Shown here piece after piece: positions 1,613 through 59,719 of a stretch of DNA of 64,000 nucleotides. Source of the stretch: a virus. Its lineage: Duplodnaviria; Heunggongvirae; Uroviricota; Caudoviricetes. Both the position numbers and the translations under genes were made by a program. The DNA lies in IMG/VR virus record IMGVR_UViG_3300018432_000003, positions 19,394 through 83,393 of that record; one strand, written 5' to 3'. The notes under the pieces are model-generated. The model was not told the DNA's origin, made no database searches, and was given only the letters and a program-made list of their open reading frames with translations. How positions within the stretch are numbered: the stretch's first letter is position 1; every line of letters starts with the position of its first letter.

Positions 1613-1646
1613 TTTGCGTGTTTTGGTGTGGTTGCACGCTCCACAG

Positions 1647-1720
1647 TTGGCGTGCTCGGACTCGAACCGAGAACCCCTGCGTTCCAAACGCAGCACTCTG
1701 ACCAATTGAGCTACACACCA
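1647..1720 (-). tRNA. tRNA-Pro (UGG)
   Basis: T-arm ctcgg-actcgaa-ccgag, anticodon stem ctgcg/cgcag loop UUUGGAA. Confidence 0.7.
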
Positions 1721-1729
1721 ATTGTAAAG

Positions 1730-1801
1730 TGGTTTCGGTAGGAATCGAACCTACGACACGATGGGCTTCAACCAACTGCTCTACCTCTGAGCTACGAAAC
1801 C
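1730..1801 (-). tRNA. tRNA-Phe (GAA)
   Basis: Perfect acceptor ggtttcg/cgaaacc, T-arm gtagg-aatcgaa-cctac, anticodon loop UUGAAGC (one stem mismatch). Confidence 0.6.
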
Positions 1802-1807
1802 ATGTTG

Positions 1808-1879
1808 CTCCCCGACTAGGATTCGAACCTAGGACATACGCATTAACAGTGCGCCGTTCTGCCGCTGAACTATCAGGGA
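1808..1879 (-). tRNA. tRNA-Asn (GUU)
   Basis: T-arm ctagg-attcgaa-cctag, anticodon stem acgca/tgcgc loop CUGUUAA, U1-A72. Confidence 0.65.
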
Positions 1880-1976
1880 ATGTTACCCGTTATCGCCCCC
1901 AACTGGTTTAGCCGATAGTGGGACTTCCGGCCTACGCAGCGGTCCCACAGGGCGTTGTAGCCACGGGTGGGGCTAG

Positions 1977-2058
1977 TGGATGCACTAGGATTCGAACCTA
2001 GGTAGCACATGGCAACAGGTTTACAGCCTGCCCTCGTTGTCCGCTTGAGTATACATCC
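1977..2058 (-). tRNA. tRNA-Tyr (GUA), type II
   Basis: T-arm ctagg-attcgaa-cctag, 82 nt with long variable arm, anticodon loop CUGUAAA. Confidence 0.65.
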
Positions 2059-2075
2059 ATATTGTATGCCCCAGA

Positions 2076-2117
2076 ACGCCAGTTCCAATGTTGGGAATCG
2101 AACCCGGAGCATATAGT
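2076..2117 (-). pseudogene. tRNA 3'-half remnant (acceptor 3' strand + T-arm only)
   Basis: ttggg-aatcgaa-cccgg T-arm-like motif but only ~40 nt before the next complete tRNA; no room for D/anticodon arms. Confidence 0.35.
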
Positions 2118-2191
2118 AATGACGGGTGGACTCGAACCACCGACGTACAGGATATGAGCCTGCTGTTCTGCCGACTGAACTACGCCATCAT
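2118..2191 (-). tRNA. tRNA with CAU anticodon (Met/Ile2-like; A1-U72, not initiator-like)
   Basis: Acceptor atgacgg/ccatcat, T-arm gtgg-actcgaa-ccac, anticodon stem acagg/cctgc loop CUCAUAU. Confidence 0.6.
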
Positions 2192-2196
2192 GTGAG

Positions 2197-2269
2197 CGGA
2201 AGTGACGAGAATCGAACTCGCTCTTGAACCGTGACAGGGTTCCGTGCAGGACCACCACACTACACCTCC
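2197..2269 (-). tRNA. tRNA-Asp (GUC)
   Basis: T-arm acgag-aatcgaa-ctcgc, anticodon stem gaacc/ggttc loop CUGUCAC, discriminator G. Confidence 0.7.
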
Positions 2270-2309
2270 GATGGGGCAGTTGTTTCAGGCACAGCTACCA
2301 AAGCCTCAT

Positions 2310-2378
2310 AGCGGGTTACAGAGTCGAACTGCAAACACGAGGACATGAACCTCGTATGTTACCTTTACACCAACCCGC
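2310..2378 (-). tRNA. tRNA with CAU anticodon (third CAU species: fMet/Met/Ile2 candidate)
   Basis: Perfect 7-bp acceptor gcgggtt/aacccgc, anticodon stem cgagg/cctcg loop UUCAUGU, weak T-stem. Confidence 0.55.
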
Positions 2379-2387
2379 ACGCTATAG

Positions 2388-2626
2388 TGGAACCGGCGGG
2401 GGTTGAACCCGCGTCTTGAATCGAATCATTGGGAGTAGTTCTTTGAGTGTTTCTATCCGTATTAGAGGGCTGCTACTAGTTCCCTTTCCTCTACGGTCAC
2501 AGTGTCAACGTCTGCGAGGAATGACTCAATCTCTGCCGCCAAGTCCTCAGCTTCCTGAGATACTACAATATCATTGCCGTGTGTTTGTTCTGCCCCTATC
2601 AATCCAATCGAAACCAGTACGGCCCC
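2388..2626 (-). ncRNA. ssrA: tmRNA (SsrA)-like RNA, compact ~239 nt; tag ORF at 2462-2536 (-) encoding AEIESFLADVDTVTVEERELVAAL
   Basis: The - strand 5' end GGGGCCGTACTGGTTTCGATTGG parallels E. coli ssrA GGGGCTGATTCTGGATTCGACGGG. The 3' end GACGCGGGTTCAACCCCCGCCGGTTCCA parallels GACGCGGGTTCAACTCCCGCCAGCTCCA. The 5' GGGGCCG pairs with 3' CGGTTCC and includes a G3.U70 wobble. An in-frame GCA resume codon lies ~90 nt from the 5' end and the ORF ends AAL-stop 45 nt before the T-arm. CCA is not encoded. Confidence 0.55.
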
Positions 2627-2915
2627 AAAAGGGTCGCCCCCGCTCCCCGAGAGAAGCGGGCACGATATAAGTTGGAAGGTGGGACTGTCATCCCACAACG
2701 AGAGGTAAAGCCTTGACATCGCAAGTCTGCTCTCGACCTCACACGCTCCCCGGTAAGGGTAACACAGTCTACTAACCCCTCGGCTTTCGGGCCTCACACG
2801 GTAATGTCCCGCTACATGGCACTCTTCTGCGTTGCACGTATGCGACATTATCCCCGACGCTTTACGGCAGGGATTTTTCTGCCACTTCCGGTAGCCAGCC
2901 GTCGCCAGCTACTAG

Positions 2916-2987
2916 TAGGACATGACGGATTCGAACCGACACCGGCCACCTTGAAAGGGTGGTGAGCTTCCGTTACTCCAATGTCCC
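2916..2987 (-). tRNA. tRNA-Glu (UUC)
   Basis: T-arm gacgg-attcgaa-ccgac, anticodon stem ccacc/ggtgg loop CUUUCAA. Confidence 0.65.
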
Positions 2988-3169
2988 AAGCGTACGTGGA
3001 GAGGGCGGGGCGGGTCGTCCACCCATCTTCTAATCCCACACGATTCCTAGCAGGACTCCACGTACAATCTTTATATACACTATCATTCAGTTGTCAATGT
3101 CCGTATAGCAGTTTCTCAACGCTATAATTACATTATACCACAGACTCGGCACTTTGTCAAGTCCGTCAG

Positions 3170-3237
3170 CACGGATGGTAGGAATCGAACCCACTTCCGC
3201 AGTTTTGGAGGCTGCGTAACCGCCTTGGCTCACCCGT
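3170..3237 (-). tRNA. tRNA-Trp (CCA), short D-region
   Basis: T-arm gtagg-aatcgaa-cccac, anticodon loop CUCCAAA with C31.A39 mismatch, acceptor acggatg/cacccgt. Confidence 0.5.
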
Positions 3238-3247
3238 ATATATCTTA

Positions 3248-3276
3248 ATTATACACCACATCGTGCAAGTTGTCAA
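3248..3276 (-). promoter_or_regulatory. sigma70-type promoter for the tRNA/tmRNA array (TTGACA-N17-TGTATAAT on - strand)
   Basis: RC of 3245-3280 reads gcacTTGACAacttgcacgatgtggtgTATAATtaa; predicted TSS ~3241, 4 nt upstream of tRNA-Trp 5' end. Confidence 0.6.
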
Positions 3277-3348
3277 GTGCTTCATGGGGTGTATAAAAAT
3301 TACCCCTCTACTTATAATGGAGACGATAGGTTCCGGGGGGTCCAAAAG

Positions 3349-3657
3349 TCAATCAGCAAAGTCGGGATTGTCTCCCCACATCTCCGCCCCGTACATATCA
3401 TCCACACTATTCTGCCACATCTTTCCTTTCTTCTGTCGCTCTCTGTGCCGTATGAGGAAGTTGGTTATCCCTCTCACTATATTATACCTCAGTTGGTCCT
3501 CATTGTCAACCTCTTTCTCCAAGGCGTTGATAAGACCCTCCTGCACGGCATCATCTATAACACTCATCTCCCCATTCTTACGGTCTATCCTACTCTCAGC
3601 TACAGTCCTAGCGTAAGGTATCAAGTCCAAGAGAAGGGCGTTCTTATCGCCATTCAC
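3349..3657 (-). CDS. hypothetical protein (102 aa)
   Basis: ORF in leftward operon, 14-nt overlap with upstream gene. Confidence 0.45.
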   Translation of the reverse strand: MNGDKNALLLDLIPYARTVAESRIDRKNGEMSVIDDAVQEGLINALEKEVDNEDQLRYNIVRGITNFLIRHRERQKKGKMWQNSVDDMYGAEMWGDNPDFAD

Positions 3658-4246
3658 TCGGCACCCTCTCCTTCACTATGGTTCGTATGCGCTTCTCACC
3701 GAAATCCTTCTCGTACTTGAGGAATAGGTTCCTGTGTGCATCTGCGGGTGCGATTCCACTTTCACGGTATCTAACAAACGCTGCTGCAACCTCATTGTAC
3801 TTGTCCTCCATCAGTGCTTCAGTGTGGGTTGTGTCTGCCACGGATGCACGACGAACGAAGATGTCCTCGTCGTTGATGAAGTCAGCCAGCCATGTTATCC
3901 CTTCATCTGCACACAGTAGGATGGTGTTCTTCGGGTTCTGCCGTCTAAGGAACTCCAAGTCACTGTGACCGGCTTCCGGGTGCATGAACACCGACAAGAT
4001 TCCATTATACCACTCTGGGTGCTCCCTGTCAAGTTCCGAGAGAGCGTACTCTAGTGTCGCGTAAGTCTCACCGATTACCGAGTTGCTGTCCATCCTAGCT
4101 TCCAACTCCGGGGTCATCGGCCAAGACTCTTCCGCACCGAAGTTGTCACCCGCTGGCACGTAGGCAGTCTGCGGCCCAGGTGGTAGGATGTTCATGTAAT
4201 CAGCAAGGAGCGTTGCTATATCCTTGCGTTTAATCTCGCTTGCCAT
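3644..4246 (-). CDS. hypothetical protein (200 aa), acidic
   Basis: First gene of leftward unit diverging from the 4247-4356 AT-rich promoter region. Confidence 0.5.
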   Translation of the reverse strand: MASEIKRKDIATLLADYMNILPPGPQTAYVPAGDNFGAEESWPMTPELEARMDSNSVIGETYATLEYALSELDREHPEWYNGILSVFMHPEAGHSDLEFLRRQNPKNTILLCADEGITWLADFINDEDIFVRRASVADTTHTEALMEDKYNEVAAAFVRYRESGIAPADAHRNLFLKYEKDFGEKRIRTIVKERVPSEWR

Positions 4247-4323
4247 CTAGTCTCCTGTTCTAAGGCGTGTAATTTATGACCATACTTACATTATAACACA
4301 CTAAGCATGTAATGTCAAGTCTC

Positions 4324-4352
4324 TTGACTTTTCGCAAGAGATGTGCTATAAT
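4324..4352 (+). promoter_or_regulatory. sigma70-type promoter TTGACT-N17-TGcTATAAT
   Basis: cTTGACTtttcgcaagagatgtgcTATAATg; 28 nt upstream of AGGAGG-ATG at 4381. Confidence 0.6.
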
Positions 4353-4380
4353 GTAAGTGTACCCTATAAACAGGAGGATA

Positions 4381-4746
4381 ATGAGTAAGAAGTCACGTAG
4401 AGCGGGACGGAGGAATCGCCCGAGTAGGGAAGAGCGTTTGCAGGCTAGGATTGAGGCAGGCGTCCCTCACGGAAGGCCGAAGGGTGGTAGCGTCCGTCAC
4501 AGGCTCCCAATGAACATGAACGAAGTGAGGCAGTTGCTCAGTGCGAAAGGCAAGCACAAGTATCTCCGACACCCTATCGGCGGTAAAGAGAATCGGTATT
4601 GGGATAAGCTATGGCAGTATAAAGGTCGTCCGTACAATAAGACACCTTATAAGGGCGACAGCAAGCGGCGTAAAATCCGTCAGGAGAGACAGAGCAAGTC
4701 GTGGAGGTTGAAGCGCGAGCGCAACAATCAGAAGAAGGTAGCGTGA
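4381..4746 (+). CDS. highly basic Arg/Lys-rich small protein (possible nucleic-acid binding)
   Basis: ATG at 4381 preceded by AGGAGGATA SD (ORF track starts at GTG 4357); about 30% R+K. Confidence 0.55.
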   Translation: MSKKSRRAGRRNRPSREERLQARIEAGVPHGRPKGGSVRHRLPMNMNEVRQLLSAKGKHKYLRHPIGGKENRYWDKLWQYKGRPYNKTPYKGDSKRRKIRQERQSKSWRLKRERNNQKKVA

Positions 4747-4752
4747 CCTATC

Positions 4753-5049
4753 ATGGTATGGATTGTATGTGGCGCGATGCTTATGTCGTCTTTATACCCA
4801 ATCCATCTGGCGGTGAACTATTTCCATTCACTATACACGTCAAGCAAAGGCCAATCAAATCAGGAGAGGTACCGGCACTATCGAGTCTCACTAGTTGCAC
4901 TCGGACAGCTTGTTCTGATAATGGGCCTTGCGATGTGTGCGTGGGGTGCAGCAAGCACGTACATACCGACCTCCGTGGTAGAAACTCGTTCGGCGGCAGA
5001 CTCGGATGGGAAAATCCCGGCGTATCCAGTCCATCCCATAGGTCCCTAG
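4753..5049 (+). CDS. hypothetical membrane protein (98 aa)
   Basis: ORF with two hydrophobic segments, start adjacent to upstream stop. Confidence 0.45.
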   Translation: MVWIVCGAMLMSSLYPIHLAVNYFHSLYTSSKGQSNQERYRHYRVSLVALGQLVLIMGLAMCAWGAASTYIPTSVVETRSAADSDGKIPAYPVHPIGP

Positions 5050-5065
5050 TGGAAGGACCGTTCAC

Positions 5066-5581
5066 ATGAAACCCAGATGGTTCTACGACTACATTGGCAT
5101 GGTAGCGAAGCACGACCATAAGCTAGGCTTGAAAGCGTGGGACGCTGAGCTTCTCGACCACGTTGCAATAGATGTAACGATAAAGCAGGAACACACTGAC
5201 ATATATGACCCTATTGACGGTATGGGCGGGAGTATAGCCACCTTACCAGGGTTCTCTCAGTTGTACGTTGATGTCAAGGACGTGCCAGTGGGGGATATAC
5301 CTCCAAGGTTTAATCCAATCAGGATGTGGGCGAGAGCCGATAGCTTGAACTACTACATCATCGACATGAACCCGGACAACGGTCAGTATCGACCGCTGTG
5401 CTTGTTCGAAAATATGTACATAGACTACGGCGCAGCGCAGCATTCATGGCGCGGTGGTAGGCTTGATGAAGAGTGGACACACTACGAGCGTTGGGTACCA
5501 GACGAGAAGTGGTACTTCATCTATCCGATGAACATGACTGTCAGTACAAAGAACAAGAGAAAGCAGATGGACCTGTGGTAA
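5066..5581 (+). CDS. hypothetical protein (171 aa)
   Basis: ORF, SD-like upstream, no recognisable motif. Confidence 0.5.
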   Translation: MKPRWFYDYIGMVAKHDHKLGLKAWDAELLDHVAIDVTIKQEHTDIYDPIDGMGGSIATLPGFSQLYVDVKDVPVGDIPPRFNPIRMWARADSLNYYIIDMNPDNGQYRPLCLFENMYIDYGAAQHSWRGGRLDEEWTHYERWVPDEKWYFIYPMNMTVSTKNKRKQMDLW

Positions 5582-5775
5582 TAACCCTAGTGTGCTTGGC
5601 GGTTGGTCTTGCCCTAGTGGGAGTAGGGTGTACCTCCCGAGCGAACAACATACGGTCGAACACTGAGTACAACTACTTGAAGTGGGTAGTGTACGACACG
5701 ATAGGTGTGATGTCCTTGAGCTTCGCAATGTTGGTGGCAGGGCTGTTGGCGTTCGTCCTCCTGTCCTTCTTATAG
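5575..5775 (+). CDS. small membrane protein (GTG start, ~66 aa)
   Basis: Two TM helices (VITLVCLAVGLALVGVG / VMSLSFAMLVAGLLAFVLL); start overlaps upstream stop. Confidence 0.35.
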   Translation: MVITLVCLAVGLALVGVGCTSRANNIRSNTEYNYLKWVVYDTIGVMSLSFAMLVAGLLAFVLLSFL

Positions 5776-5894
5776 TGAGAGAGGTTTCTTATCTATAGGT
5801 TAAAGAGAACCGTTAAATTAACAGTAGAAACATCCCTTATATATTACTATATAAAGATAAAGAGCGCGTGTGCGCACGCACGCACGAGGGTAAT

Positions 5895-6317
5895 ATGCGT
5901 AGATGGTTGACGGAGAAGATACTGGAAGCTGGATACAGTATGGACAATAGGGCGCTGAGTTGGTTGGAAGAGAACAACGAAAGGACGTTATCGAAAATGG
6001 GTTATCACGACAAGAACTTCGGAGTGCCTGGGCCGATACTCGGTGAGGTACCTAGCGGTGAGGAAGGCAGTTACGCCTTGACGCAGAAAGACCCTGAGAT
6101 TGCCAAGGTTAAGAGAGTTGCTGCCAGTAACGTACTGTGGGCGTACGCCGAAGGGTATACTTCAGGAGCGGCTGACTGCGAGAATGCGAATGCCGATAAG
6201 TTGCAGGATTACCTGAGAGCCATAGCAATCAATAACCCTAGCTTGAAGTTCATGGAGTACGGTGCTGTTGAGGACCTGATACGTCAGCAGTTGTATCGGT
6301 GCTACCCTGAGAGTTGA
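5895..6317 (+). CDS. hypothetical protein (~140 aa)
   Basis: ATG at 5895 after GAGGG SD (track start 5868); AT-rich leader upstream. Confidence 0.5.
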   Translation: MRRWLTEKILEAGYSMDNRALSWLEENNERTLSKMGYHDKNFGVPGPILGEVPSGEEGSYALTQKDPEIAKVKRVAASNVLWAYAEGYTSGAADCENANADKLQDYLRAIAINNPSLKFMEYGAVEDLIRQQLYRCYPES

Positions 6318-6342
6318 CAACGACCCCGATATGTGGTATAAT
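6314..6342 (+). promoter_or_regulatory. sigma70-type promoter TTGACA-N17-TGgTATAAT
   Basis: gTTGACAacgaccccgatatgtggTATAATg. Confidence 0.6.
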
Positions 6343-6385
6343 GTAATTATAACGGTTGACACCGAGCAGAAAGGACTGCACACAT

Positions 6386-7288
6386 ATGGGTTACTTGGAT
6401 GACTTCATCCATTGGTTGAATAACGAAGTCGGTGGGGAAGGACCCTTACCAGGGTTGGACCACGGTGACTTCGGACAGATTATGGGTGAGAGCCTCTCAA
6501 GGCACTACGCTGAGGACAGACAGAAGGGTGGCTTGCGAATGAGCAACATCGGCAAGCCTGCCGCAGTGCTCGCACTCGCCCACCTAGGGTACGTTGAACC
6601 TGAACCTAAAGGTAAGTCTCGCATAATCTTCCTGATGGGTGACATGTACGAGAACTGGTTGGAGGTCATGCTCAAGGTTTACGGATTTGAAATCATAGAG
6701 AGCCAGCCTGAGATGAACTTCATGGGTATTACAGGTCACGCCGACTTCGTGATTAAGAACCCTGAGAACGATGAACCACTCATCATTGAAGCTAAGACGA
6801 TGAGTGAAGGGTATGCGAGGATGTTCTCACGGGAACTCAACGACGACCGGGGGTACATATCACAGCTTGGCATGTACAGTCACGGTTATCGGAAGGAACC
6901 TACCGACTGTACTTGGGTGTGTTTCAATAAAGGGAATGCCGAGACATTCGAGTTGGTCCCACCGGAAGGGTTGATACTCCAAAGACTCGACCGCGCCGAA
7001 CAGGTCATCAAGAGGGTTCGGAGGGTTAAGTCCGTTGAGGACATCTTGGAACAGGTTAGGGTGCCCCCACCGAGGCCGGAAGTCTACCAGAAGAAGGAGA
7101 CTGGTAAGTTCCTCGTTCCAGGGTCCTTATCGTACAGTCCTTTCAAGCGTGCCCTCTACGTTACATCCGACGGAACTAACGGGTACGGTAAGCCTACCAC
7201 TTACGTGGATAGGGAAGCCGACAGTGCGCACTTGAAGAAGGAACTTGAACTACTAGTTGAGTCAGGTACGGTGATGCTCGATGGTTGA
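6386..7288 (+). CDS. PD-(D/E)XK nuclease, RecB/YqaJ-like exonuclease candidate
   Basis: GHADFVI...IIEAKT (D...ExK core) plus YISQLGMY; ATG 6386 after AAAGGA SD (track start 6356). Confidence 0.45.
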   Translation: MGYLDDFIHWLNNEVGGEGPLPGLDHGDFGQIMGESLSRHYAEDRQKGGLRMSNIGKPAAVLALAHLGYVEPEPKGKSRIIFLMGDMYENWLEVMLKVYGFEIIESQPEMNFMGITGHADFVIKNPENDEPLIIEAKTMSEGYARMFSRELNDDRGYISQLGMYSHGYRKEPTDCTWVCFNKGNAETFELVPPEGLILQRLDRAEQVIKRVRRVKSVEDILEQVRVPPPRPEVYQKKETGKFLVPGSLSYSPFKRALYVTSDGTNGYGKPTTYVDREADSAHLKKELELLVESGTVMLDG

Positions 7289-7583
7289 GCTTACGCATAC
7301 AGCATATGCGACGATTAGGGTTAATGACCCTAGGTATACTGAAAAACCTAGGTTCCTGCGTGCCGACGTTCTGAAGGCGCTGGCACTGATACACGCAACC
7401 CACAAGCAACTCTTTGGCGAGAAGTACGACGCCCCTTACGTTACAATCTACAAGGACAAGAAGAAGGTCACAATCAAGTACAGGTGGCCGCAGGATTGGA
7501 ACGGGCAAGACCCTATCTTTGGGGTTCTTCGGAAGGATGACATATACGAGCACGTCTTGGGGTTGGTGATGGATGGACGCTGA
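7281..7583 (+). CDS. hypothetical protein (100 aa)
   Basis: ORF, ATGGTTGA start-stop overlap. Confidence 0.45.
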   Translation: MVELTHTAYATIRVNDPRYTEKPRFLRADVLKALALIHATHKQLFGEKYDAPYVTIYKDKKKVTIKYRWPQDWNGQDPIFGVLRKDDIYEHVLGLVMDGR

Positions 7584-7890
7584 GAGGGCACAGACGTTCA
7601 GGGATACCATCAACGAGTATAGGGAGATACTGCTCACTAACGGAAAACCCAAGAAGGAAGAGAAGATTGAACTGTTCCTTAAATTCGACGAGACTTGGTA
7701 TGAGCCACTCTGCTTCGGGTACAACCTCATGGCCCCCTTCAACACGCCCCACCACATCAAGTCTCAGTGGCAGTTGGCTAAGGAAGTTGAGGAAGGTACG
7801 TTCTTCCTCTACCTCTCGCTAGGGTACGGGATTTGGATTGGACGTGAGCATCTGATGCACGCTATCGCAAACGCGGAGGATGAAGAATGA
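7573..7890 (+). CDS. hypothetical protein (105 aa)
   Basis: ORF. Confidence 0.45.
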   Translation: MDAERAQTFRDTINEYREILLTNGKPKKEEKIELFLKFDETWYEPLCFGYNLMAPFNTPHHIKSQWQLAKEVEEGTFFLYLSLGYGIWIGREHLMHAIANAEDEE

Positions 7891-8081
7891 TAGACCCGAT
7901 TAGTATTGATGATGCAGTTAACGACGCTATACGTTACATGAGAGATAACGAGGATGACATGTCTCAACGTCTTAACAGGGTTCTTAATGACCTCCTGCAC
8001 TCGATACACGTGCTGAAACTGCAACGGAAGGCGTTCGGTGATATGTACCTGGAGGAAGCTGAGAAGAATGAAAGGACTTGA
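7887..8081 (+). CDS. hypothetical protein (64 aa)
   Basis: ORF, 4-nt overlap with upstream. Confidence 0.4.
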   Translation: MIDPISIDDAVNDAIRYMRDNEDDMSQRLNRVLNDLLHSIHVLKLQRKAFGDMYLEEAEKNERT

Positions 8082-11423: not shown

Positions 11424-11699
11424 GAGGCGGAGCTATGTCCAATGTCCTCAGTTGCAGTACTTGATTGGCGCGGCCTTCGTACCCGCGCAAGGCGGAGCTA
11501 TGCAACAAATTAAGCAAGCATGCAGTACCGTAGGTACTCCGAAAGGCGGCACGGAGGATAATCCGTCGCATCTTTACACGTAAGGCGTGCGCATTCGGTT
11601 GGATGCCGAAAACGGCCATGTTCAATCATGGTGGCGAACCCGTTCGACTCGGGTATGCGTACCTACGCGCTCGTGGGTGGTCCACGAGGCGGAGCTATG
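11424..11699 (+). repeat. three copies of AGGCGGAGCTATG each preceded by a GC-rich palindrome, in a ~65% GC island
   Basis: Copies at 11424-11437, 11489-11502, 11686-11699. Confidence 0.5.
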
Positions 11700-38766: not shown

Positions 38767-39073
38767 CGTAGGCGAGAGGGTCATTGCGGGTGATAACATT
38801 GTAGGCTTGCAGGACGGTCAGTGTACAGCATACAAGATGGACTGGCCGATGTACGAACAGAACCCTGTGTACATGTTCGTAGTGGAGGTACTCAGTACGG
38901 GTGAGCAGCATGCATTCACTCGCCCGTTCACCATATACTTCCGCAATGGATGGCCTAGCTTAGTGTGGGAGATTAGTAATGGACAACTAGTAGCCGTACC
39001 TATCACCAGGGCTGCACTGAAGCAGGCCGGTAGCGTGTGGCTTGTGGAGGAAGCTAATGAGAACGTCAACTAA
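38747..39073 (+). CDS. hypothetical protein (~108 aa)
   Basis: ATG 38747 (track 38684). Confidence 0.4.
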   Translation: MRQYEDNVGERVIAGDNIVGLQDGQCTAYKMDWPMYEQNPVYMFVVEVLSTGEQHAFTRPFTIYFRNGWPSLVWEISNGQLVAVPITRAALKQAGSVWLVEEANENVN

Positions 39074-39080
39074 CTTCAAG

Positions 39081-40472
39081 ATGACCCCGAGGTTATACAG
39101 CCTTGCGGGTGCCTTCGAGAGTAGGGGGTATGAGTTCTACTTCGTCGGTGGTTTCGTCAGGGACACACTGATGATAAGCTCTTCGAAGGATGTAGACGCC
39201 ACAACCAACGCACCCCCGAGCGAGATAAAGGCCATACTCCGACAGCACTTTGGGGATAGCCTCGACGCAATGTACACCGTAGGCGAGAAGTATGGTACCA
39301 TCGGTCTGAAGATTGGTGTCCTCGACGTTGAGATTACGACGTACAGGACTGAGCAGTATGAGGATGGGAGTCGAAAGCCGGAGGTTGCGTTCGGTAGTAG
39401 TCTCTATGAGGACCTGTCGCGTAGGGATTTCACCATCAATGCCATCGCATGCGATAAGGATGCAAACATAATCGACCCTTACGGCGGGTTGGATGATATA
39501 CAGGAAGGAGTTGTTCGCTTTGTCGGTAAGCCTTATGAGCGCATATTGGAGGACCCACTGCGCCTTCTACGGGCAGTTCGCTTTGCAGCCCGTTATGACT
39601 TCGCTCTACCTCAACTGTTTGCTATACGAGTCGATTCGTCCGCGCTCCTTGAAGTCTCGAAGGAGAGGATAAGGGACGAACTCTGCAAGATGCTGGTGGA
39701 CGAGAAGCCCTCACGTGCAATCCGCATGCTGAAGGAGGCTTGGCTGCTGAGGTACGTAACCCGTGAGGTTGACAGGCTTGACACTGTTGAGCAGATAAGC
39801 CCCTACCACTATGAGAACGCCTTCGACCACACCATGAGGGTCCTTGACGAGAGCTACCCTGAACTAGACCAGAGGCTTGCTGCACTACTGCACGATACTG
39901 GTAAGTTCGACACGATAGAGTACCACAACGACCCTGACGAACGCACCACGTTCTACGGGCATGAGGAAGCGTCTGCGAGGTTTGCACATCGCATGCTGCA
40001 CAGGCTCAGGTTCCCTCACGTGATAGTGAACAAGGTCACCCACATGGTGGCGTGTCACATGCGTCCACTCCAACTCTACAATGAACTGGATGCTGGTAAG
40101 ACCCCTTCCAACCGTGCAATCCGCAGATTCATCAAAGCATGTCAGGCAGACAACTGCACTGTGGAGGACGTGTTGGAGCTTAACTACGCTGACATGAAGG
40201 GCCATGCAGAGCCGAACATGGACAACTTCTATCAGCTTGAGCGTCTAGTCAAGACTGTACGCACCGACGACAACTTCCAGCCGGAGGAAGCAGACAGCCC
40301 GCTGGATGGTAACGAGTTGATGGAACTCTTCAACGGAAAGGCAGGCCCAGGACCGTGGATTGGAGCTACTAAGGCACACTTGACAAACCTCGTAGTTGAT
40401 GGTATAATAGAGGTAGACGATAAAGAAGGTGCCAAGAGGGAGGCCCTAGACTATTGGAATCGAAGAAAGTAA
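39081..40472 (+). CDS. cca: tRNA nucleotidyltransferase (CCA-adding enzyme) with C-terminal HD domain
   Basis: GGFVRD ... DVD ... RRDFTINAIA ... EDPLRLLRAVRFAARY head domain; LLHDTGK HD motif; track start 39042. Confidence 0.65.
   Translation: MTPRLYSLAGAFESRGYEFYFVGGFVRDTLMISSSKDVDATTNAPPSEIKAILRQHFGDSLDAMYTVGEKYGTIGLKIGVLDVEITTYRTEQYEDGSRKPEVAFGSSLYEDLSRRDFTINAIACDKDANIIDPYGGLDDIQEGVVRFVGKPYERILEDPLRLLRAVRFAARYDFALPQLFAIRVDSSALLEVSKERIRDELCKMLVDEKPSRAIRMLKEAWLLRYVTREVDRLDTVEQISPYHYENAFDHTMRVLDESYPELDQRLAALLHDTGKFDTIEYHNDPDERTTFYGHEEASARFAHRMLHRLRFPHVIVNKVTHMVACHMRPLQLYNELDAGKTPSNRAIRRFIKACQADNCTVEDVLELNYADMKGHAEPNMDNFYQLERLVKTVRTDDNFQPEEADSPLDGNELMELFNGKAGPGPWIGATKAHLTNLVVDGIIEVDDKEGAKREALDYWNRRK
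40380..40408 (+). promoter_or_regulatory. sigma70-type promoter TTGACA-N17-TGgTATAAT inside 3' end of cca
   Basis: cTTGACAaacctcgtagttgatggTATAATa. Confidence 0.5.
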
Positions 40473-54970: not shown

Positions 54971-55149
54971 CGAACCGGCAGAAGATTGCAGGGTTCTTGC
55001 GTTGGCTTGAGAATAAGAAGTGGATTGAACTCGTTGAGATGATGAACGAGTACGGTGAGGAAGGTAATATAAAGAGGACCTACGACACGGACGAGGTGAT
55101 GGAATTGTACGAAGAGTACTTGGAAGATATGGCGGGGTTCAACGTATGA
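54967..55149 (+). CDS. hypothetical protein (60 aa)
   Basis: ORF. Confidence 0.4.
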   Translation: MTNRQKIAGFLRWLENKKWIELVEMMNEYGEEGNIKRTYDTDEVMELYEEYLEDMAGFNV

Positions 55150-55910
55150 AGTACACATTGCGTTGGTCCATCATAATCCTGTTCATCGTAGCTATGGCCC
55201 TCCTGCTGACTAACGTAGCGTCAGCTAAGGAGTGGGGTCAGTTCGACGTTACGAATGCAGGACAGATTGCCAAGGTGTGGGAACACACTAGGTACGACGA
55301 GGCGTGGAACAAGACCAGGAAGCAGTTGAACAACCTTGCGCGTGAGCGCGGTGTTACATTCAACGAGCAGGGTCATAGGGGAACCCCCGGTATCGCGTAC
55401 GAAGTTGAAATCAAGGATGCCCTCCTTGTCATGGGCATCGGTGGTACTGACTACAATCACATATTCTGTGAGGATGGCAAGTGCCGTTCTTGGTCAACCG
55501 TCACGATAAGTACTAGGTACCCTGGTCAGCTTCCCACTATGCGACACGAGTTAGGTCACGTACTGTCAGCCCCACACCACAGGTGCAGGGTCCACACTGT
55601 CATGGTTGGTGCCCCTTACGTACCATGCACTGGCGTCAACAACCGAGAGTCATATTACACTAGGCACGACAAGCGTGACTACGCAGAGAACAGGCGTGAA
55701 GGAGTGTACGACGACCGACTCGGACTTAGAGTGTCAGGTGTGAGCATGGAGGCGTCAAACCTATCGGAAGCTAAGGAGATTGCATACTTCCACAGTAATG
55801 CAGACTACGTAACTGAGACAAAGAAAAATGGTGGCACCCTGTTAACCATGAAGTACATCCCCCACAATGGGTTGGACAGACTTCACGAGAGTACAGAGCA
55901 CCACCACTAA
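55146..55910 (+). CDS. secreted zinc metalloprotease-like protein (signal peptide + HExxH)
   Basis: Signal peptide MKYTLRWSIIILFIVAMALLLTNVASA; zincin motif HELGHVLSAPHH; last gene of the + block. Confidence 0.5.
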   Translation: MKYTLRWSIIILFIVAMALLLTNVASAKEWGQFDVTNAGQIAKVWEHTRYDEAWNKTRKQLNNLARERGVTFNEQGHRGTPGIAYEVEIKDALLVMGIGGTDYNHIFCEDGKCRSWSTVTISTRYPGQLPTMRHELGHVLSAPHHRCRVHTVMVGAPYVPCTGVNNRESYYTRHDKRDYAENRREGVYDDRLGLRVSGVSMEASNLSEAKEIAYFHSNADYVTETKKNGGTLLTMKYIPHNGLDRLHESTEHHH

Positions 55911-55990: not shown

Positions 55991-56221
55991 TTACCTCCTC
56001 GGCGGACGCCACAGATTCTCCGGCTCCTGTGAGCCTTCCAAGAATTTTCTAACAGTCTGTCTACTGTACACGAACTGTCTCACTGCCCCGAATCCACCAG
56101 CTAGTACGAACGCCTCTACGATGAACGATACGGCCTCATACTGCTCTGGAACCAGGGTGAAATTGAGTAGTGTCAAGACAGCCGTGATAACACCCATGAT
56201 TAGGGCTGCTTCCTTGTTCAT
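55991..56221 (-). CDS. small membrane protein (2 TM; holin-like)
   Basis: ALIMGVITAVLTLLNFTLV and FIVEAFVLAGGFGAV. Confidence 0.4.
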   Translation of the reverse strand: MNKEAALIMGVITAVLTLLNFTLVPEQYEAVSFIVEAFVLAGGFGAVRQFVYSRQTVRKFLEGSQEPENLWRPPRR

Positions 56222-56289
56222 GTATAATCCTTTCGTTAAAAAGTGTGTGGGGGAAGGCCACAGCTTCCCTCCCCCACGGTAAAGGTAGT

Positions 56290-56526
56290 TTACGCGAAGT
56301 ACGCTGCTTCTCCTGAGAGCGGTGCAGGGTATCCCTTCGCCGCCTCATCCAAGCGGTTCTCCAGTGAAGCACTGAATACGCCTGCGTCACGTAGTGATGC
56401 CGCCTCTGCCGGGGTTACGTAAACTGCTACACGCCCCTCAGCAGCACTTAGGTTACCCTTGTCCACATTCTTGCTGAACGTATGGGTACCCGCTACGTTG
56501 AAGTTCTGGTTTGGTCTATTAGCCAT
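56290..56526 (-). CDS. hypothetical protein (78 aa)
   Basis: ORF in late leftward operon. Confidence 0.4.
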   Translation of the reverse strand: MANRPNQNFNVAGTHTFSKNVDKGNLSAAEGRVAVYVTPAEAASLRDAGVFSASLENRLDEAAKGYPAPLSGEAAYFA

Positions 56527-56577: not shown

Positions 56578-57276
56578 TTAGTTATTGCCTGCGATGAATG
56601 GTGAGTCAACTTGGAAGTGACCGTGGTCAAGGTGACGTGACGGCACTAGTGCCTGAGAGCCACCACTCCACTGGCGACGGATAGGCTCGTAATCGAACCA
56701 ACCCTGCCCGTGGTTCATCCAGTTCCACCATATGATGTAGTTAAGGTTGAGCTTACCCCAATTACGGAGTGCCCAATTAACTAGCCTGTCGCCCGCATTC
56801 TCTTCTGCATTGTTAGCCTTCTGGCCGAACTTGCTGACCATCGCATCAATGCCGAACTTGATACCAGTCGTGCCGTGACCGATGTAGGTTGCGCACACAA
56901 TCGGCCTACCACTCTTGCTCTGCGCCTTGCGCCTGATAAGCCCAACAGTACGCCTAGTTCTGTCGTGCCACGCATGACCGTTCCTAGCCCCCGCGTAGGG
57001 AGGCCAGCCAGTCGGCGTAGAGTCAGGTAGGATAATCTTCCTTCCCACCTTGAACGATGCCGTCAGGTTTACCTCCGCATCCTCGCCAGTTATTGCACCT
57101 ACGAGGTTCTCAGCGGCGTCAGTGAGGGGGTTCTCTAATATAGGGTCGGCAGGCTCAAGACCCACCTGGATTGCCTTCTCACTGTCAGGGATGTGGTCGA
57201 ATACTTCGATGTTGTTCTTGTCAATGAAGTCTAGTACAACTTCCTTGTCCGGGAATGCTCCACAGATATTACTCAT
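56578..57276 (-). CDS. putative peptidoglycan endopeptidase (M23/LytM-like HxxxD ... HxH motifs)
   Basis: HAWHD ... HLDHGHF; adjacent to GH25 muramidase; assignment tentative. Confidence 0.4.
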   Translation of the reverse strand: MSNICGAFPDKEVVLDFIDKNNIEVFDHIPDSEKAIQVGLEPADPILENPLTDAAENLVGAITGEDAEVNLTASFKVGRKIILPDSTPTGWPPYAGARNGHAWHDRTRRTVGLIRRKAQSKSGRPIVCATYIGHGTTGIKFGIDAMVSKFGQKANNAEENAGDRLVNWALRNWGKLNLNYIIWWNWMNHGQGWFDYEPIRRQWSGGSQALVPSRHLDHGHFQVDSPFIAGNN

Positions 57277-57278
57277 GA

Positions 57279-57950
57279 TTACCCCGCAATACGGTCGAGT
57301 GCTGCCTTGTCGAATGTGTAGTTCACGTCAACGTAGAGGTTTGACACCTTACCAGTGCTGGTGAACTGACCCATAACCCTCGGCGGTGGCTCATTACCAC
57401 CGAACCATGAAGTGCGCTTCCACCAAGCCTCTAAGTTACGGAAGTACTTCTTCGGTGCGTTGTGCTTCTTCATGTCAGCGTAGTGTGCGCTCCAGATGCC
57501 GTCAACGCCATACTGTGAGGCGTCACCACTCGGGTCGCCACCCTCCCAGAACCCTGGTCCACTGTAGAGTAGGACCTTCTTGCCTGGGAACCTCTTCTTC
57601 ACGCTCGCAACGAACCTCTTCAACTGTGAGTTGCTTGGGGTCTTGTGCGGTGCGTTGTTGTACTCTTCGAAGTCTACGATTAGGACGCGGCCTTTAGCGC
57701 CACCTACCTTACGCACTTGCTTCTCGAAGTTCGCAGCCTGCCTGATTGGGTCGCTGTTAGTCAGGAAGTGGTAGTAACCTACGTACTTGAACTTCTGCTT
57801 CTTGATTCTACGTACGAAGAACCTCAACCCTTTCGGGATGTATCCAGTGCCTTCCGACACCTTAACGAATACGAAGTCGTAACCTTCCCTCTTAACGCCC
57901 TTGAACCTCAATAGCAATTGATATACTGGATGTACGTCAATGCCAAACAT
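57279..57950 (-). CDS. GH25-family muramidase (lysozyme)
   Basis: FGIDVHPVYQ ... YDFVFVKVSEGTGY ... typical GH25 N-terminus. Confidence 0.65.
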   Translation of the reverse strand: MFGIDVHPVYQLLLRFKGVKREGYDFVFVKVSEGTGYIPKGLRFFVRRIKKQKFKYVGYYHFLTNSDPIRQAANFEKQVRKVGGAKGRVLIVDFEEYNNAPHKTPSNSQLKRFVASVKKRFPGKKVLLYSGPGFWEGGDPSGDASQYGVDGIWSAHYADMKKHNAPKKYFRNLEAWWKRTSWFGGNEPPPRVMGQFTSTGKVSNLYVDVNYTFDKAALDRIAG

Positions 57951-57960
57951 GCTTACCTCC

Positions 57961-58656
57961 TTATGCTGCTCTCGTCTGTACTGCCGTCACTGCCTCAAAT
58001 TGTCCGAAATTCCACAGTGCCTTCAATCCATTCAAAGACATGTAGAAGCTGCCGCCATCACCGTAGTCGTCACCCCAACTGTTCTGGAAGTAGTACCTGT
58101 TCTGCTCATCCTTCCCATACAGTAGGTAGCAGTGCCCACCACGGACCCCACTGTTGACATCCACTTGCACGAAGTTGCTGGAAGTCAGTGTGTCCATGCT
58201 CCTGTACCAGTTGCTTGCGACTACGACTGGTCCTTTAGTGAGCAACCATGCATCTAACTCGTCGAGGCTCCTAGCCCACAAGTATGTGTCCAAGAGGAAC
58301 CTCTCAAGCATGGTCTTAGCGCCAGCCCTCACACTGGTTCCTTCATAGTCAGTCCCAGGCCATGCATCATTCTCCTGCGCACGCCTGTATATGCCGAAGC
58401 AGTACGTGTTGTCAACCTGATTCATGTACCCTTTAGGCTTGCAGTTGTGCCAGTTACCCCAACCGAACCCAACGCAGGCACCCTCCCTACCTTGGTCGGT
58501 GGAATCCCCTCGCTCCCACACTGTGGCGTCAGGTACCTCAATTACATCATTAAGGTTGTCACCCATAGTGAATAGTGCATCTCTACTGTCTTTATGAGGA
58601 AAGTGGCCTAACCCTTTACTCATGTGACCTCCTGTTGTTAATGAAGTTACGTACAA
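57961..58656 (-). CDS. papain-like cysteine peptidase (C1 family)
   Basis: QGREGACVGFGW (Q ... C), GGHCYLLYG (His), NSWGDDYGDGGSFYM (Asn-Ser-Trp-Gly). Confidence 0.6.
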   Translation of the reverse strand: MYVTSLTTGGHMSKGLGHFPHKDSRDALFTMGDNLNDVIEVPDATVWERGDSTDQGREGACVGFGWGNWHNCKPKGYMNQVDNTYCFGIYRRAQENDAWPGTDYEGTSVRAGAKTMLERFLLDTYLWARSLDELDAWLLTKGPVVVASNWYRSMDTLTSSNFVQVDVNSGVRGGHCYLLYGKDEQNRYYFQNSWGDDYGDGGSFYMSLNGLKALWNFGQFEAVTAVQTRAA

Positions 58657-58939
58657 TCTTAATCCACCCTAGGGTTATGAATGTGCTGTACAGTGCGTTA
58701 GTGAACCACACTGACCAAAACATAGTCTCCGGCAGACTGTTTGCGAGCGCACCACCAAGGAAGCTGACGCCTCCCCAGAAGAGTGCAATCCCAAGTGCCC
58801 CGAATGCCCCGACGAGTAAGACCCTATCAAAGAAGTCCGTCGTTTCAGGTGGCTCTTTCTGCATGATTACGAAAATCAGCAGTATTAACGTCAGCGTTGC
58901 CCCAATCAACAACAGACCCGTAATTGATAGTCCTACCAC
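58616..58939 (-). CDS. holin-like membrane protein (3 TM)
   Basis: LSITGLLLIGATLTLILLIFVI, VLLVGAFGALGIALFWGGVSFLGGAL, LYSTFITLGWIKIV. Confidence 0.5.
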   Translation of the reverse strand: MVGLSITGLLLIGATLTLILLIFVIMQKEPPETTDFFDRVLLVGAFGALGIALFWGGVSFLGGALANSLPETMFWSVWFTNALYSTFITLGWIKIVRNFINNRRSHE

Positions 58940-58943
58940 GCGC

Positions 58944-59453
58944 TCATCCCCTCTCTATAATGTCCTTACAACGCTTGTCAGATAGTGGTAGTACCTTTAT
59001 GGTTTCGTCACCGACCTCATTAATGTTCTGGTAAGTCGGTACGACGTAGAACATCCTCCCATCTAGTTTACCCTGCAACCCGAAGTGGTAAACCCCAGGC
59101 TCCAACGGTGCTGACCTCACGGCAACTGATGACTTGATTGTTCTAGGGTACGGCTCCAAGTCAAGAGGCTCATACTCCCATGAATCAACCACTTCCTCGT
59201 TCTCGTTCAGCATCAATGCAGCCCCTTCCTCCAGGTGACCGATGCTGTAAGGACCACTACGCACCTCAGACACGTAGCTGCTGTCGAACGCCTCCAGCGG
59301 ACATACTTCCGGGGGTACGTTCTTCCACCCGTAGAACTCGAATGGATGGTATGGGGTTATGAACCCCGCCAACGATATTGCGAACACTAGAACCGCAAGG
59401 GTTATCCCGTATGCATTGAATCTAACGTACCAAGGCTGTTCCTTCAAAGCCAT
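58944..59453 (-). CDS. membrane-anchored protein (N-terminal TM)
   Basis: GITLAVLVFAISLAGFI. Confidence 0.45.
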   Translation of the reverse strand: MALKEQPWYVRFNAYGITLAVLVFAISLAGFITPYHPFEFYGWKNVPPEVCPLEAFDSSYVSEVRSGPYSIGHLEEGAALMLNENEEVVDSWEYEPLDLEPYPRTIKSSVAVRSAPLEPGVYHFGLQGKLDGRMFYVVPTYQNINEVGDETIKVLPLSDKRCKDIIERG

Positions 59454-59719
59454 TAACTACCACCACCTATCCAAAGTGACAGAACGACCGAAAGTACCGT
59501 CAGGACTAGGTTGGACCCCATCACAGTGAATATAAGTTTCCAGGCGTACTCCCTCTTGTCCCACTTCAACATGAATTCCTTCACGATAGCCATGTCTTTC
59601 ACTAGGCCAGCGTGGTTAATCTGCGCATCACCGAAAACCGCCTGTTCAATCCTCTGCACTGCGCCCCACGCCTCGATGAGCGTAGGTTCTTTTCTTTGCT
59701 CACTCATCGACATCCACAT
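59453..59719 (-). CDS. small C-terminally anchored membrane protein (holin/antiholin-like)
   Basis: LIFTVMGSNLVLTVLSVVLSLWIGG. Confidence 0.4.
   Translation of the reverse strand: MWMSMSEQRKEPTLIEAWGAVQRIEQAVFGDAQINHAGLVKDMAIVKEFMLKWDKREYAWKLIFTVMGSNLVLTVLSVVLSLWIGGGS

Follow-up and report, generated by a model that had tools for sequence, protein, structure and literature searches.

VldE (Spr1875; PDB 9flh-9fln) is a secreted autolysin of Streptococcus pneumoniae, with LysM as its N-terminal domain and a long linker. It was shown experimentally to be a peptidoglycan L,D-endopeptidase, whose activity needs H301, D308, H375, H370, D372 and H373 (PMC11667670). The VldE/MT3 fold was first characterised biochemically in 2024, with this pneumococcal enzyme. 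The family belongs to MEROPS clan MD, and both VldE and the M23 peptidases are members of the LAS group, with a common H...D / HxH logic of the zinc site (PMC11667670). MT3 stands for motif 3 in tape-measure proteins of the mycobacteriophage TM4 type (Piuri and Hatfull 2006, cited in PMC11667670). There the domain forms part of a protein of >1000 aa, which sets the tail length and acts at infection.

Lysis genes split into single-domain units have been described in Gordonia phages. The endolysins of BetterKatz (gp29-32) were published as a cysteine-protease-like gene and a separate glycoside hydrolase gene (PMC4982276). In GMA2 (Orf35-39), Aleemily (gp26-30) and Mareelih (gp106-110), as in BetterKatz, the tail genes are followed by a series of single-domain lysin genes. 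Among cysteine peptidases, CHAP and NlpC/P60, two other papain-fold families of clan CA, are standard peptidoglycan peptidases. We know of no wall substrate for the papain family (C1) itself, and in a literature search no C1-family enzyme was reported to cut peptidoglycan.

The window analysed here, a stretch of 64,000 nt, comes from an uncultured, large, novel and tRNA-rich tailed phage. The phage encodes RNR, PolA, DnaB, a primase, a Cas4-like exonuclease, a CCA-adding enzyme and 21 tRNAs. Megablast of the cassette DNA against 50,697 phage records gave no match. In tblastn the PolA protein did not exceed 29% identity to any phage record, with matches mixed across phages of Actinobacteria, Firmicutes and Proteobacteria; because of this low identity the phage is considered unrelated overall to the Gordonia phages.

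The lysis genes make up one compact minus-strand operon where the tail genes end (Table 1). A sequence-only reading of this DNA had listed six ORFs extending over 56578-59719. An ORF check returned all six at the same positions on the minus strand, but the block reaches 55991, which adds a 78-aa soluble protein and a 76-aa 2-TM protein. The gaps and overlaps among p88, p169, p107, C1, GH25 and p232 range from -8 to +10 nt, and several cassette genes have strong Shine-Dalgarno sites. A promoter and terminator scan found fewer sites than in shuffled sequence. The boundary gene matched XkdW with E = 4e-4 (20.5 bits, below the Pfam cut-off of 24.6); the match was equally weak in the orthologues from the relative L003 and the P0012 contig, and the gene is kept with 31-56% identity in L003, L088 and L089. 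In L003 the cassette has the same position after tail-region genes. C1, GH25 and p232 all lack TM segments and signal peptides, and four membrane proteins flank the trio. We think that the locus is probably a late-gene lysis module, in which split single-domain enzymes are released by small membrane proteins. The earlier reading of the locus as a lysis cassette was retained, with three separate cell-wall hydrolase candidates: the GH25 muramidase, the C1 peptidase and the VldE-type p232.

Table 1. Genes of the lysis operon and its boundary gene (positions in the window)
Feature	Position	Strand	Description
XkdW-like protein, 142 aa	59723..60151	-	boundary; last tail-region gene before the membrane-protein genes
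p88	59453..59719	-	C-terminal TM segment (62-80), soluble N-terminal part; lysis accessory or holin-type candidate
p169	58944..59453	-	type-II membrane protein; N-terminal TM 14-32, extracytoplasmic domain of ~135 aa
p107	58616..58939	-	holin candidate; two strong TM segments, weaker aromatic-rich third, basic tail RNFINNRRSHE
C1 cysteine peptidase, 220 aa	57961..58623	-	putative peptide-cutting lysin
GH25 muramidase (lysozyme), 223 aa	57279..57950	-	catalytic domain only
p232, 232 aa	56578..57276	-	VldE/MT3-type LAS-fold zinc peptidase; catalytic domain ~residues 95-225
p78	56290..56526	-	small soluble protein; GGAAGGAGG ribosome-binding site
p76, 76 aa	55991..56221	-	conserved 2-TM protein; closes the operon; second holin candidate

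The GH25 protein matched PF01183 with E = 3.5e-20 (73.5 bits, cut-off 27), as well as the endolysin PHROGs 291, 3084, 6745 and 6219. Among solved structures the autolytic lysozyme 4kru matched it best (5e-7), with GIDV (D5) and D93-F-E95 of the phage protein aligned to the D-x-E of the lysozyme. The family match and the D5 and D93-x-E95 motifs confirm the earlier identification of a muramidase.

The second enzyme had been called a C1 peptidase. PF00112 scored 27.9 bits on the protein (cut-off 20.7), the match being confined to residues 129-208, and PHROG 16701, annotated as 'peptidase', matched with 4e-32. The family profile (A4) matched 121 solved C1 structures, the best being xylellain (3ois, E = 1.3e-14), with which both lobes aligned. 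In an alignment with the papain sequence, Q44, C50, H164, N181 and W183 of the phage protein correspond to Q19, C25, H159, N175 and W177; the Gln, Cys, His, Asn and Trp of the active site are likewise in register with xylellain and other bacterial C1A peptidases. Gln, Cys and His were invariant in the homologues (117/117) and Asn was present in 115/117. The strings QGREGAC, GGHC and NSWG, on which the earlier assignment had been based, are all present. A non-peptidase fold or an inactive triad had been named as the finding that would speak against this assignment; this objection fails, since the profiles indicate a peptidase, none of them pointing to a non-peptidase fold, and all the catalytic residues are preserved. 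Judged from its sequence, the protein is a member of papain family C1. It differs from xylellain and papain in being phage-encoded, in a lysis context, and compact (about 220 aa), and it has no long I29-type propeptide, no signal peptide and no papain-type disulfide cysteines (none were seen in the alignment).

The span proposed earlier for this gene, 57961-58656, has to be shortened. Since AGGAGG precedes ATG 58623 and the homologues are 217-222 aa long, this ATG, giving 220 aa, is most likely the start, rather than TTG 58656. The p107 stop overlaps it by 8 nt.

Homologues of C1 (27-30% identity, tblastn) stand immediately ahead of the holin gene in the lysis cassettes of GMA2, Aleemily and Mareelih. 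In L006 a homologue stands beside spanin-like genes. Other homologues lie outside lysis cassettes: in Streptomyces phage Wakanda the gene adjoins the terminase, in the Stenotrophomonas jumbo phage RAS14 its neighbours are unrelated genes, and a further copy is in the crAss-like L005. In the search for a host, a genome scan that used C1 as its only query gave no match. The alignment-based scan found relatives at the 25-46% level only, mostly in Actinomycetota and also in Gemmatimonadota, Acidobacteriota, Planctomycetota and Tissierellales.

Separate genes in place of one fused polypeptide, as the sequence-only reading had noted, were confirmed, but the rarity that it ascribed to the arrangement and to the C1 enzyme was overstated: split lysins are routine in annotated Gordonia phages, three of which (GMA2, Aleemily and Mareelih) carry the C1 homologue. 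The arrangement is moderately unusual, not unprecedented. In the Gordonia phages the homologue is accompanied by a C39-type protease and an Amidase_2, with lysin B as a further enzyme in Aleemily. Here its partners are GH25 and the VldE-like enzyme, and a lysin B was not found. The Gordonia holin follows the enzymes, whereas here membrane proteins are encoded on both sides.

The third enzyme, p232, had been taken for an M23-like endopeptidase with the motifs HxxxD...HxH. PF01551 (M23) did not match p232 at E <= 0.1, nor p232 and five homologues at E <= 10. The HxxxD candidate is not conserved (H101 in 2/20, D105 in 4/34 aligned homologues), whereas H134 and D144, separated by 9 residues, are. 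The HxH part of the motif stands, within a larger HxDHxH. An AF2 model built from 42 sequences (an earlier model from 7 sequences had pLDDT 35 and was unusable) was compared with known folds; p232 does not have the M23 fold of the lysostaphin/LytM type and has the LAS alpha/beta fold as in 9flh. The missing profile match, the variable HxxxD and the fold comparison together rule out M23.

The p232 protein had no match in PHROG, NCBIfam or a copy of Pfam that did not contain PF26571. Precomputed assignments to PF26571 exist for P0001-P0006 and for the L003 and L089 orthologues of p232. A domain profile made from 27 sequences matched 9flh with E = 6.8e-14 over profile positions 3-116/117. H215-L-D217-H218-G-H220 is an exact match to the HxDHxH motif of VldE and is 91-100% conserved; D144 (95% conserved) aligns with VldE D308. 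H134 (81% conserved) is three columns off VldE H301 in the HMM alignment, because the His-Asp loop is longer by 3 residues in p232 (9 residues, 6 in VldE); it is longer still in the VldE-like protein of L088. As the spacing differs and the alignment is off by three columns, H134 is named here as a presumed ligand. Other differences from VldE are the identity of only about 22%, the phage origin, the lack of LysM and signal sequence, and an unrelated N-terminal domain of ~95 aa with invariant Cys5-Gly6. We conclude that p232 is a VldE/MT3-type enzyme (PF26571), which has only the broad LAS active-site logic in common with M23.

Gene order in relatives was compared in 89 fetched loci. C1 and the VldE-like gene are neighbours in L003, L088 and L089 as they are in the window, that is, in the close lineage only; in L013 a VldE-like ORF is ~3.3 kb away from C1. 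The gene that follows C1 in L004 encodes a 175-aa protein that resembles VldE weakly: it scored 9.5 bits against the profile, and in a two-sequence BLASTP comparison it was 29% identical to the L088 protein (E = 4e-6). This is suggestive of a VldE-like protein. The P0012 contig has a gene of 184 aa after C1. GH25 is on the other side in L088 and L089, and is absent from L004 and the P0012 contig. The pair of C1 and the VldE-like gene is conserved in relatives, while GH25 moves or drops out.

Neither p107 nor p76 reaches the threshold of any holin family. The p107 protein has TM segments, a charged C-terminus and a gene beside the endolysin genes, as expected of a small-membrane-protein holin. 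It was without a holin family match in Pfam, PHROG and NCBIfam, and only 5 close, near-identical homologues were found, none with a Pfam domain. It is absent from three of the closest relatives (L003, L088, L089); in the P0012 contig a 105-aa gene, matched by position, takes its place. The protein is lineage-specific. Size, topology (with a weaker third segment) and position agree with the 3-TM holin proposed earlier, whereas the lack of a holin family and the absence from L003, L088 and L089 do not, and a holin role for p107 is plausible. The second candidate, p76, has two hydrophobic segments and orthologues (35-38% identity) at the matching terminal position in L003, L088 and L089; in L004 this position is taken by an 80-aa 2-TM gene. 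Holin_SPP1 was found on three p76 orthologues with E = 0.018-0.057, all below the cut-off, and not on p76 itself.

The two small membrane proteins described upstream, p88 and p169, were recovered with one strong hydrophobic segment each (hydropathy 2.23 in p88), and neither has a family match in Pfam, PHROG or NCBIfam. The stop of p88 overlaps the p169 start by 1 nt. Positional counterparts of p88, 92-99 aa long and of equal topology, are present in L003, L088 and L089. An XhlA-like identity had been considered for p88 on account of its C-terminal TM segment and the neighbouring XkdW-like gene; this was rejected, with no Pfam support even at E <= 10. Proteins of the p169 type occur in a single copy in the window and as two paralogous copies in L003, L088 and L089. 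The p78 protein has no TM segment and no family match in Pfam, PHROG or NCBIfam; one to three small soluble genes are at its position in the relatives, without sequence similarity to p78.

In the mechanism that we favour, the module would be the last part of the minus-strand structural operon to be transcribed, and the three signal-less soluble enzymes would accumulate in the cytoplasm. Permeabilisation of the membrane by one or more of p107, p76 and possibly p88 would then let them reach the wall, where they are expected to cut complementary bonds. GH25 would hydrolyse the MurNAc-GlcNAc glycan bond. By homology to VldE, p232 would most likely cut the stem peptide at L-Ala-D-iGlu/Gln, with H134, D144 and H220 as predicted Zn-binding residues, together with H218, D217 and H215 of HxDHxH. 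C1, through Cys50/His164, would most likely cleave a different peptide bond of the wall, which may belong to the stem, the cross-bridge or a wall-linked protein. In effect, the cassette may be a modular actinophage-style 'lysin A' split into single-domain genes, which can be shuffled as genes. Which of the membrane proteins is the holin, and the bond specificities and holin dependence of the enzymes, are predictions of this scheme, as is the action of C1 on the wall at all; the gene structure, family and fold assignments, intact catalytic residues and synteny in relatives are observations.

The wall-cutting role of C1 has a serious, if less probable, competitor: C1 may be a protein-directed protease encoded beside lysis genes, which processes or activates a lysis protein such as p232 with its N-terminal domain, degrades a host envelope or S-layer protein, or disarms a host factor. 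The characterised C1 enzymes matched by the profile are all protein or peptide proteases (cathepsins, cruzain, xylellain), and the homologues in Wakanda, RAS14 and L005 are away from lysis genes. The Gordonia phages with a homologue already own separate protease and amidase lysin A genes, and the adjacency of C1 to the VldE-like gene in the window, L003, L088 and L089 is also in keeping with a protease. The VldE-like partner in L088 and the weakly similar L004 protein, however, have no N-terminal domain, so processing of that domain cannot be the general role of C1. In unrelated phages the gene recurs next to holins or spanin-like genes, which points to a role in lysis, and CHAP and NlpC/P60, the papain-fold kin of C1, are generally known to act on peptidoglycan. 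We prefer a lysin role for C1.

It is improbable that p232 is a virion-associated, wall-piercing entry enzyme whose gene closes the tail operon, comparable to MT3 of the tape-measure proteins, with which it has the domain family in common. A canonical MT3-like member, a distant relative of p232, matches 167 cultured-phage records (Mycobacterium, Corynebacterium, Gordonia) of the 50,697, and these fall under tape-measure protein genes among the matches listed; p232 and a second member of its subfamily gave no tblastn match to the same records. The fold matches of p232 in BFVD include Gordonia phage tape-measure proteins, and its gene is in one operon with the tail genes. Against an entry role, p232 is free-standing and has neither the context nor the length of a tape-measure protein, and its gene lies inside the lysis block, as it is bounded by membrane-protein genes and GH25 upstream and by the conserved 2-TM gene downstream. 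Elsewhere the VldE-like domain is fused to GH25 (P0138) and Amidase_2+SPOR (P0136, P0146), in endolysin-like architectures, and to Amidase_2+Glucosaminidase (P0148), which argues that it serves as a lysin domain. Very improbable is the original combination of M23 endopeptidase, GH25 muramidase and C1 peptidase with p107 as 3-TM holin. The strings HAWHD and HGH do exist in p232, the zinc-site logic of the LAS group is common to M23 and VldE (PMC11667670), two of the enzymes were confirmed, and p107 is holin-like in size, topology and position; the M23 part, however, is refuted by the profile, conservation and fold evidence.

Endolysins are mined as antibacterials, and the catalogue of lysis catalytic domains is thought nearly closed. 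The cassette suggests that the VldE/MT3 fold also works as a stand-alone lysis enzyme, and C1, encoded beside holins here and in Gordonia phages, may represent a new lytic activity; as a candidate it is concrete and cheap to test. The novelty is modest and the current understanding of phage lysis is not overturned. It would go further, and we find it rather doubtful, to regard C1 and the free-standing VldE/MT3-type L,D-endopeptidase as a conserved two-gene, peptide-cutting endolysin core of the lineage; if true, C1 would be a new catalytic class of endolysin and the MT3 fold would have been recruited from a tape-measure (entry) to a lysis (exit) use. The movement and loss of GH25, while both peptidases stay, is a gene-level counterpart of the domain shuffling in fused lysins.

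The N-terminal domain of p232 has an invariant Cys-Gly...Pro motif, which is reminiscent of the cysteine switch of matrixins. The domain could be a latency prodomain that blocks the zinc site until release.

All six ORFs named in the sequence-only reading of this region were present on the minus strand where it had placed them, and the lysis cassette that it proposed proved to be real, correctly located and right in two of its three enzyme assignments. The lysis genes form part of one tightly packed operon, which runs on from large tail-region genes (63987 to 60151). The stop codon of p88 and the start of p169, both genes of small membrane proteins, overlap by 1 nt, and the gene of the holin candidate p107 starts 4 nt after p169. 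The gap between the C1 peptidase and GH25 genes is 10 nt, that between GH25 and p232 is 2 nt, and GH25 has an AAGGAGG site. A weak terminator-like hairpin between p78 and p76 is probably not meaningful, because terminator-like sites in the region are fewer than in shuffled sequence.

Features of the window (cassette in gene order) and of the loci compared with it
Locus	Feature	Position (strand)	Remarks
Window	p88	59453-59719 (minus)	small membrane protein
Window	p169	58944-59453 (minus)	small membrane protein; single p169-type gene
Window	p107	58616-58939 (minus)	holin candidate; fills second p169-type slot
Window	C1	57961-58623 (minus)	predicted papain-family cysteine peptidase
Window	GH25	57279-57950 (minus)	muramidase
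Window	p232	56578-57276 (minus)	predicted VldE-like enzyme
Window	p78	56290-56526 (minus)	78 aa, soluble
Window	hairpin	56246-56262 (minus)	weak, terminator-like
Window	p76	55991-56221 (minus)	76 aa, 2-TM; second holin candidate
Window	254-aa ORF	55146-55910 (plus)	convergent on lysis operon end
Window	tRNA array	47-2987 (minus), 39042-40472 (plus)	dense
Window	"tRNA-???"	11588-11663 (plus)	two-base anticodon
L003	lysis genes		C1 identity 71%; enzyme order as in window; second p169-like paralogue in place of p107
L003	p169-type tandem	7017-7989
L089	lysis genes	3316-5354	C1 identity 73%; GH25 ahead of C1, then VldE-like
L089	p169-type tandem	2334-3312
L088	lysis genes	3328-5266	C1 identity 70%; GH25 ahead of C1; VldE-like protein without N-terminal domain
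L088	p169-type tandem	2371-3328
P0012 contig	lysis genes		C1 identity 74%; C1 then 184-aa gene; GH25 absent
L004	lysis genes	6001-7217	C1 identity 54%; C1 then 175-aa gene; GH25 absent
L006	C1 locus	5474-7862	C1 identity 39%, more distant
GMA2	cassette with C1 homologue	Orf35-39
Mareelih	cassette with C1 homologue	gp106-110
Aleemily	cassette with C1 homologue	gp26, gp27, gp29, gp30	"lysin A, protease C39 domain", "lysin A, amidase domain", "cysteine protease", "holin"

The 232-aa protein p232 had been read as M23-like. This is wrong at both family and clan level, as profile, structure model and Foldseek all place the protein with the VldE type. p232 had no match in Pfam, PHROG or NCBIfam, and a precomputed PF26571 domain, labelled "VldE" in the gene table, is recorded for the few close homologues that it has (48-63% identity). 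The 75 relatives that came out of an exhaustive profile search have only the region from about residue 95 to 225 in common. Conserved in the family are T130, Y131, H134, G135, G138, D144, G162, D163, Y180, I182 and W193, together with the C-terminal motif H215-x-D217-H218-x-H220. The HxxxD zinc motif on which the M23 reading relied (H101...D105) is kept in only 2/20 and 4/34 sequences, and is thus a chance string. A 27-sequence profile of the domain matched pneumococcal VldE (9flh) over the whole domain with E = 6.8e-14. The AlphaFold2 model, built from a 42-sequence alignment, was confident (pLDDT 86.6, pTM 0.84), and its sole credible Foldseek matches in the PDB were five VldE entries (probability 0.90-0.99), so that the predicted structure agrees with the sequence profile.

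Experiments have characterised VldE as a zinc L,D-endopeptidase that acts on cross-linked peptidoglycan, where it cleaves the L-Ala-D-iGlu bond of the acceptor strand; zinc is bound by H301, D308 and H375, and H370, D372 and H373 are essential too (PMC11667670). In p232 the HxDHxH motif is reproduced exactly and D144 aligns with VldE D308, whereas the H134 loop is three residues longer, which makes H134 a putative first zinc ligand. The loop is longer still in the L088 orthologue, which shows that the His-Asp spacing varies within the VldE-like family.

Residues 1-95 of p232 contain a Cys5-Gly6 pair that is invariant in all seven close homologues and is usually followed 3-4 residues later by a proline (ICGAFPD, NCGAVTP, TCGGNLP and so on). 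The CG...P pattern is also present in P0129, P0130 and P0149. Matrixins carry a PRCGxPD cysteine switch, and by analogy the p232 element could keep the zinc site latent; model confidence falls below 50 at residues 1-5.

Is p232 a lysin? In a set of metagenomic fusion proteins that also includes P0166 and P0196, the VldE-like domain was joined to GH25 (P0138), Amidase_2 and SPOR (P0136, P0146) or Amidase_2 and Glucosaminidase (P0148), domain combinations that are classical for modular endolysins or autolysins. These fusions, and the place of p232 between GH25 and a conserved 2-TM gene, argue for a lysin. The domain also occurs inside proteins of 1600-2140 aa with M23 or SLT domains, those of the fusion set having 1782-2140 aa and M23, M10 or SLT domains, and a canonical member of the VldE/MT3 family (MT3 being the related tape-measure-protein motif) matched 167 cultured-phage records, the matches listed all lying under tape-measure protein genes; both observations speak against it. 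The p232 subfamily itself had no tblastn match in 50,697 cultured-phage records, so by these collections a free-standing VldE fold in a lysis cassette is undescribed in cultured phages. We regard this use of the fold as the main novelty; what is modestly new is that a VldE/MT3-type enzyme stands free, has a Cys-Gly domain at its N-terminus and is conserved as the partner of the C1 peptidase.

The C1 gene was present, although its start is most likely the ATG at 58623 (220 aa) rather than the TTG at 58656 chosen earlier, because this ATG is overlapped by the p107 stop codon and preceded by AGGAGG, and because homologues have 217-222 aa. The protein matched PF00112 with 27.9 bits (threshold 20.7), confined to residues 129-208, and PHROG 16701 "peptidase" at 4e-32. 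A 49-sequence family profile matched 121 solved C1 structures, the best being xylellain (3ois, 1.3e-14); cathepsins B, S, K, F and cruzain came next. The alignment with xylellain covers both lobes and pairs DQGregaCVG with DQGRIGSCTA. In an alignment of 117 homologues with what we take to be the papain sequence, Q44, C50, H164, N181 and W183 correspond to papain Q19, C25, H159, N175 and W177; none of the homologues departs from Q, C or H, and 115/117 keep N. Profile and alignment revealed neither a non-peptidase fold nor a broken catalytic triad, so the protein is, by sequence, a papain-family enzyme, as had been claimed.

C1 homologues were found in 41 phage records, and a literature search for a Peptidase_C1 endolysin found no paper. 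In three different groups of Gordonia phages (GMA2, Aleemily and Mareelih) a C1 homologue is part of the annotated lysis cassette, where it follows split lysin genes and stands directly upstream of the holin. Split lysins are therefore not new, and cassettes with a C1-type cysteine protease have at least been annotated, which weakens the earlier claim that such an enzyme is uncommon in lysis cassettes. Homologues also occur away from lysis genes, adjoining the terminase in Wakanda, in jumbo phage RAS14 and at the crAss-like locus L005, so that a substrate other than the wall is a serious rival.

The GH25 assignment was confirmed by profile (PF01183, E = 3.5e-20, 73.5 bits against a cut-off of 27), by matches to four endolysin PHROGs and by motif: the N-terminal GIDV and D93-F-E95 align with solved relatives, the closest being autolytic lysozyme 4kru and putative lysozyme 2wag.

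Among the related loci, the succession of C1 and VldE-like genes was constant where testable (window, L003, L088, L089); the successor in L004, ending in HYKHLH, weakly resembles the L088 VldE-like enzyme. GH25 is mobile, lying before C1 (L088, L089), after it (window, L003) or being absent (L004, P0012 contig). Lysin genes are shuffled as whole genes within one phage lineage. p107 is specific to its lineage: only five homologues were found, all of them near-identical. A 2-TM gene of about 75 aa closes the operon at every lineage locus compared, and three p76 orthologues gave repeated Holin_SPP1 matches, all sub-threshold. The p169-type protein, with an N-terminal TM segment and an ectodomain of about 135 aa, matches no known family; its gene is tandem-duplicated in three relatives.

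The data show how the genes are arranged, to which families and folds the proteins belong, that catalytic residues are intact and that synteny exists; that lysis depends on a holin, which bonds are cut and that C1 acts on the wall are inferred. The C1 peptidase, GH25 and the VldE-like enzyme, soluble and without signal sequences, would build up in the cytoplasm until p107 and/or p76, perhaps with help from p88, opened lesions in the membrane and so released them. The glycan would then be the target of GH25, L-Ala-D-iGlx in the stem peptide that of the VldE-like enzyme, and another peptide bond that of the C1 peptidase.

At the distant locus L006 the lysis block starts with two small TM proteins and C1; after these come a 166-aa protein (PHROG 3108), a TM protein of 117 aa and a lipoprotein of 114 aa (LSAC lipobox), which look spanin-like together. 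Spanin-type arrangements are used by phages of Gram-negative hosts. The window has no spanin-type lipoprotein, which would fit a monoderm host.

The window is clearly phage. It also encodes ribonucleotide reductase, PolA, DnaB, primase, a Cas4-type exonuclease and a CCA-adding enzyme (tRNA nucleotidyltransferase, PHROG 2244 at 4e-72). The cassette DNA had no megablast match in the 50,697 phage records and PolA identity to any of them was <=29%; judged by sequence, there is no close cultured relative among them. ARAGORN found 21 tRNA genes, including three tRNA-Met and four tRNA-Leu; with the array and the CCA-adding enzyme the phage carries its own tRNA supply and repair set. The "tRNA-???" call lies inside overlapping ORFs and could therefore be spurious, or else a degenerate element resembling a tRNA. 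The 254-aa ORF encodes a signal-like hydrophobic segment at the N-terminus (IIILFIVAMALLLTNVASA) and the zinc-metalloprotease motif HELGH; its sole match was Reprolysin_3, weak (E = 0.036), and it may be a secreted metalloprotease. A protein 100% identical to p107 (P0202) is recorded on a contig of 85,983 nt, for which Logan is the only listed source; the source contig of the window, of 95,940 nt, is listed under JGI, so these may be two assemblies of one phage or of nearly identical ones.
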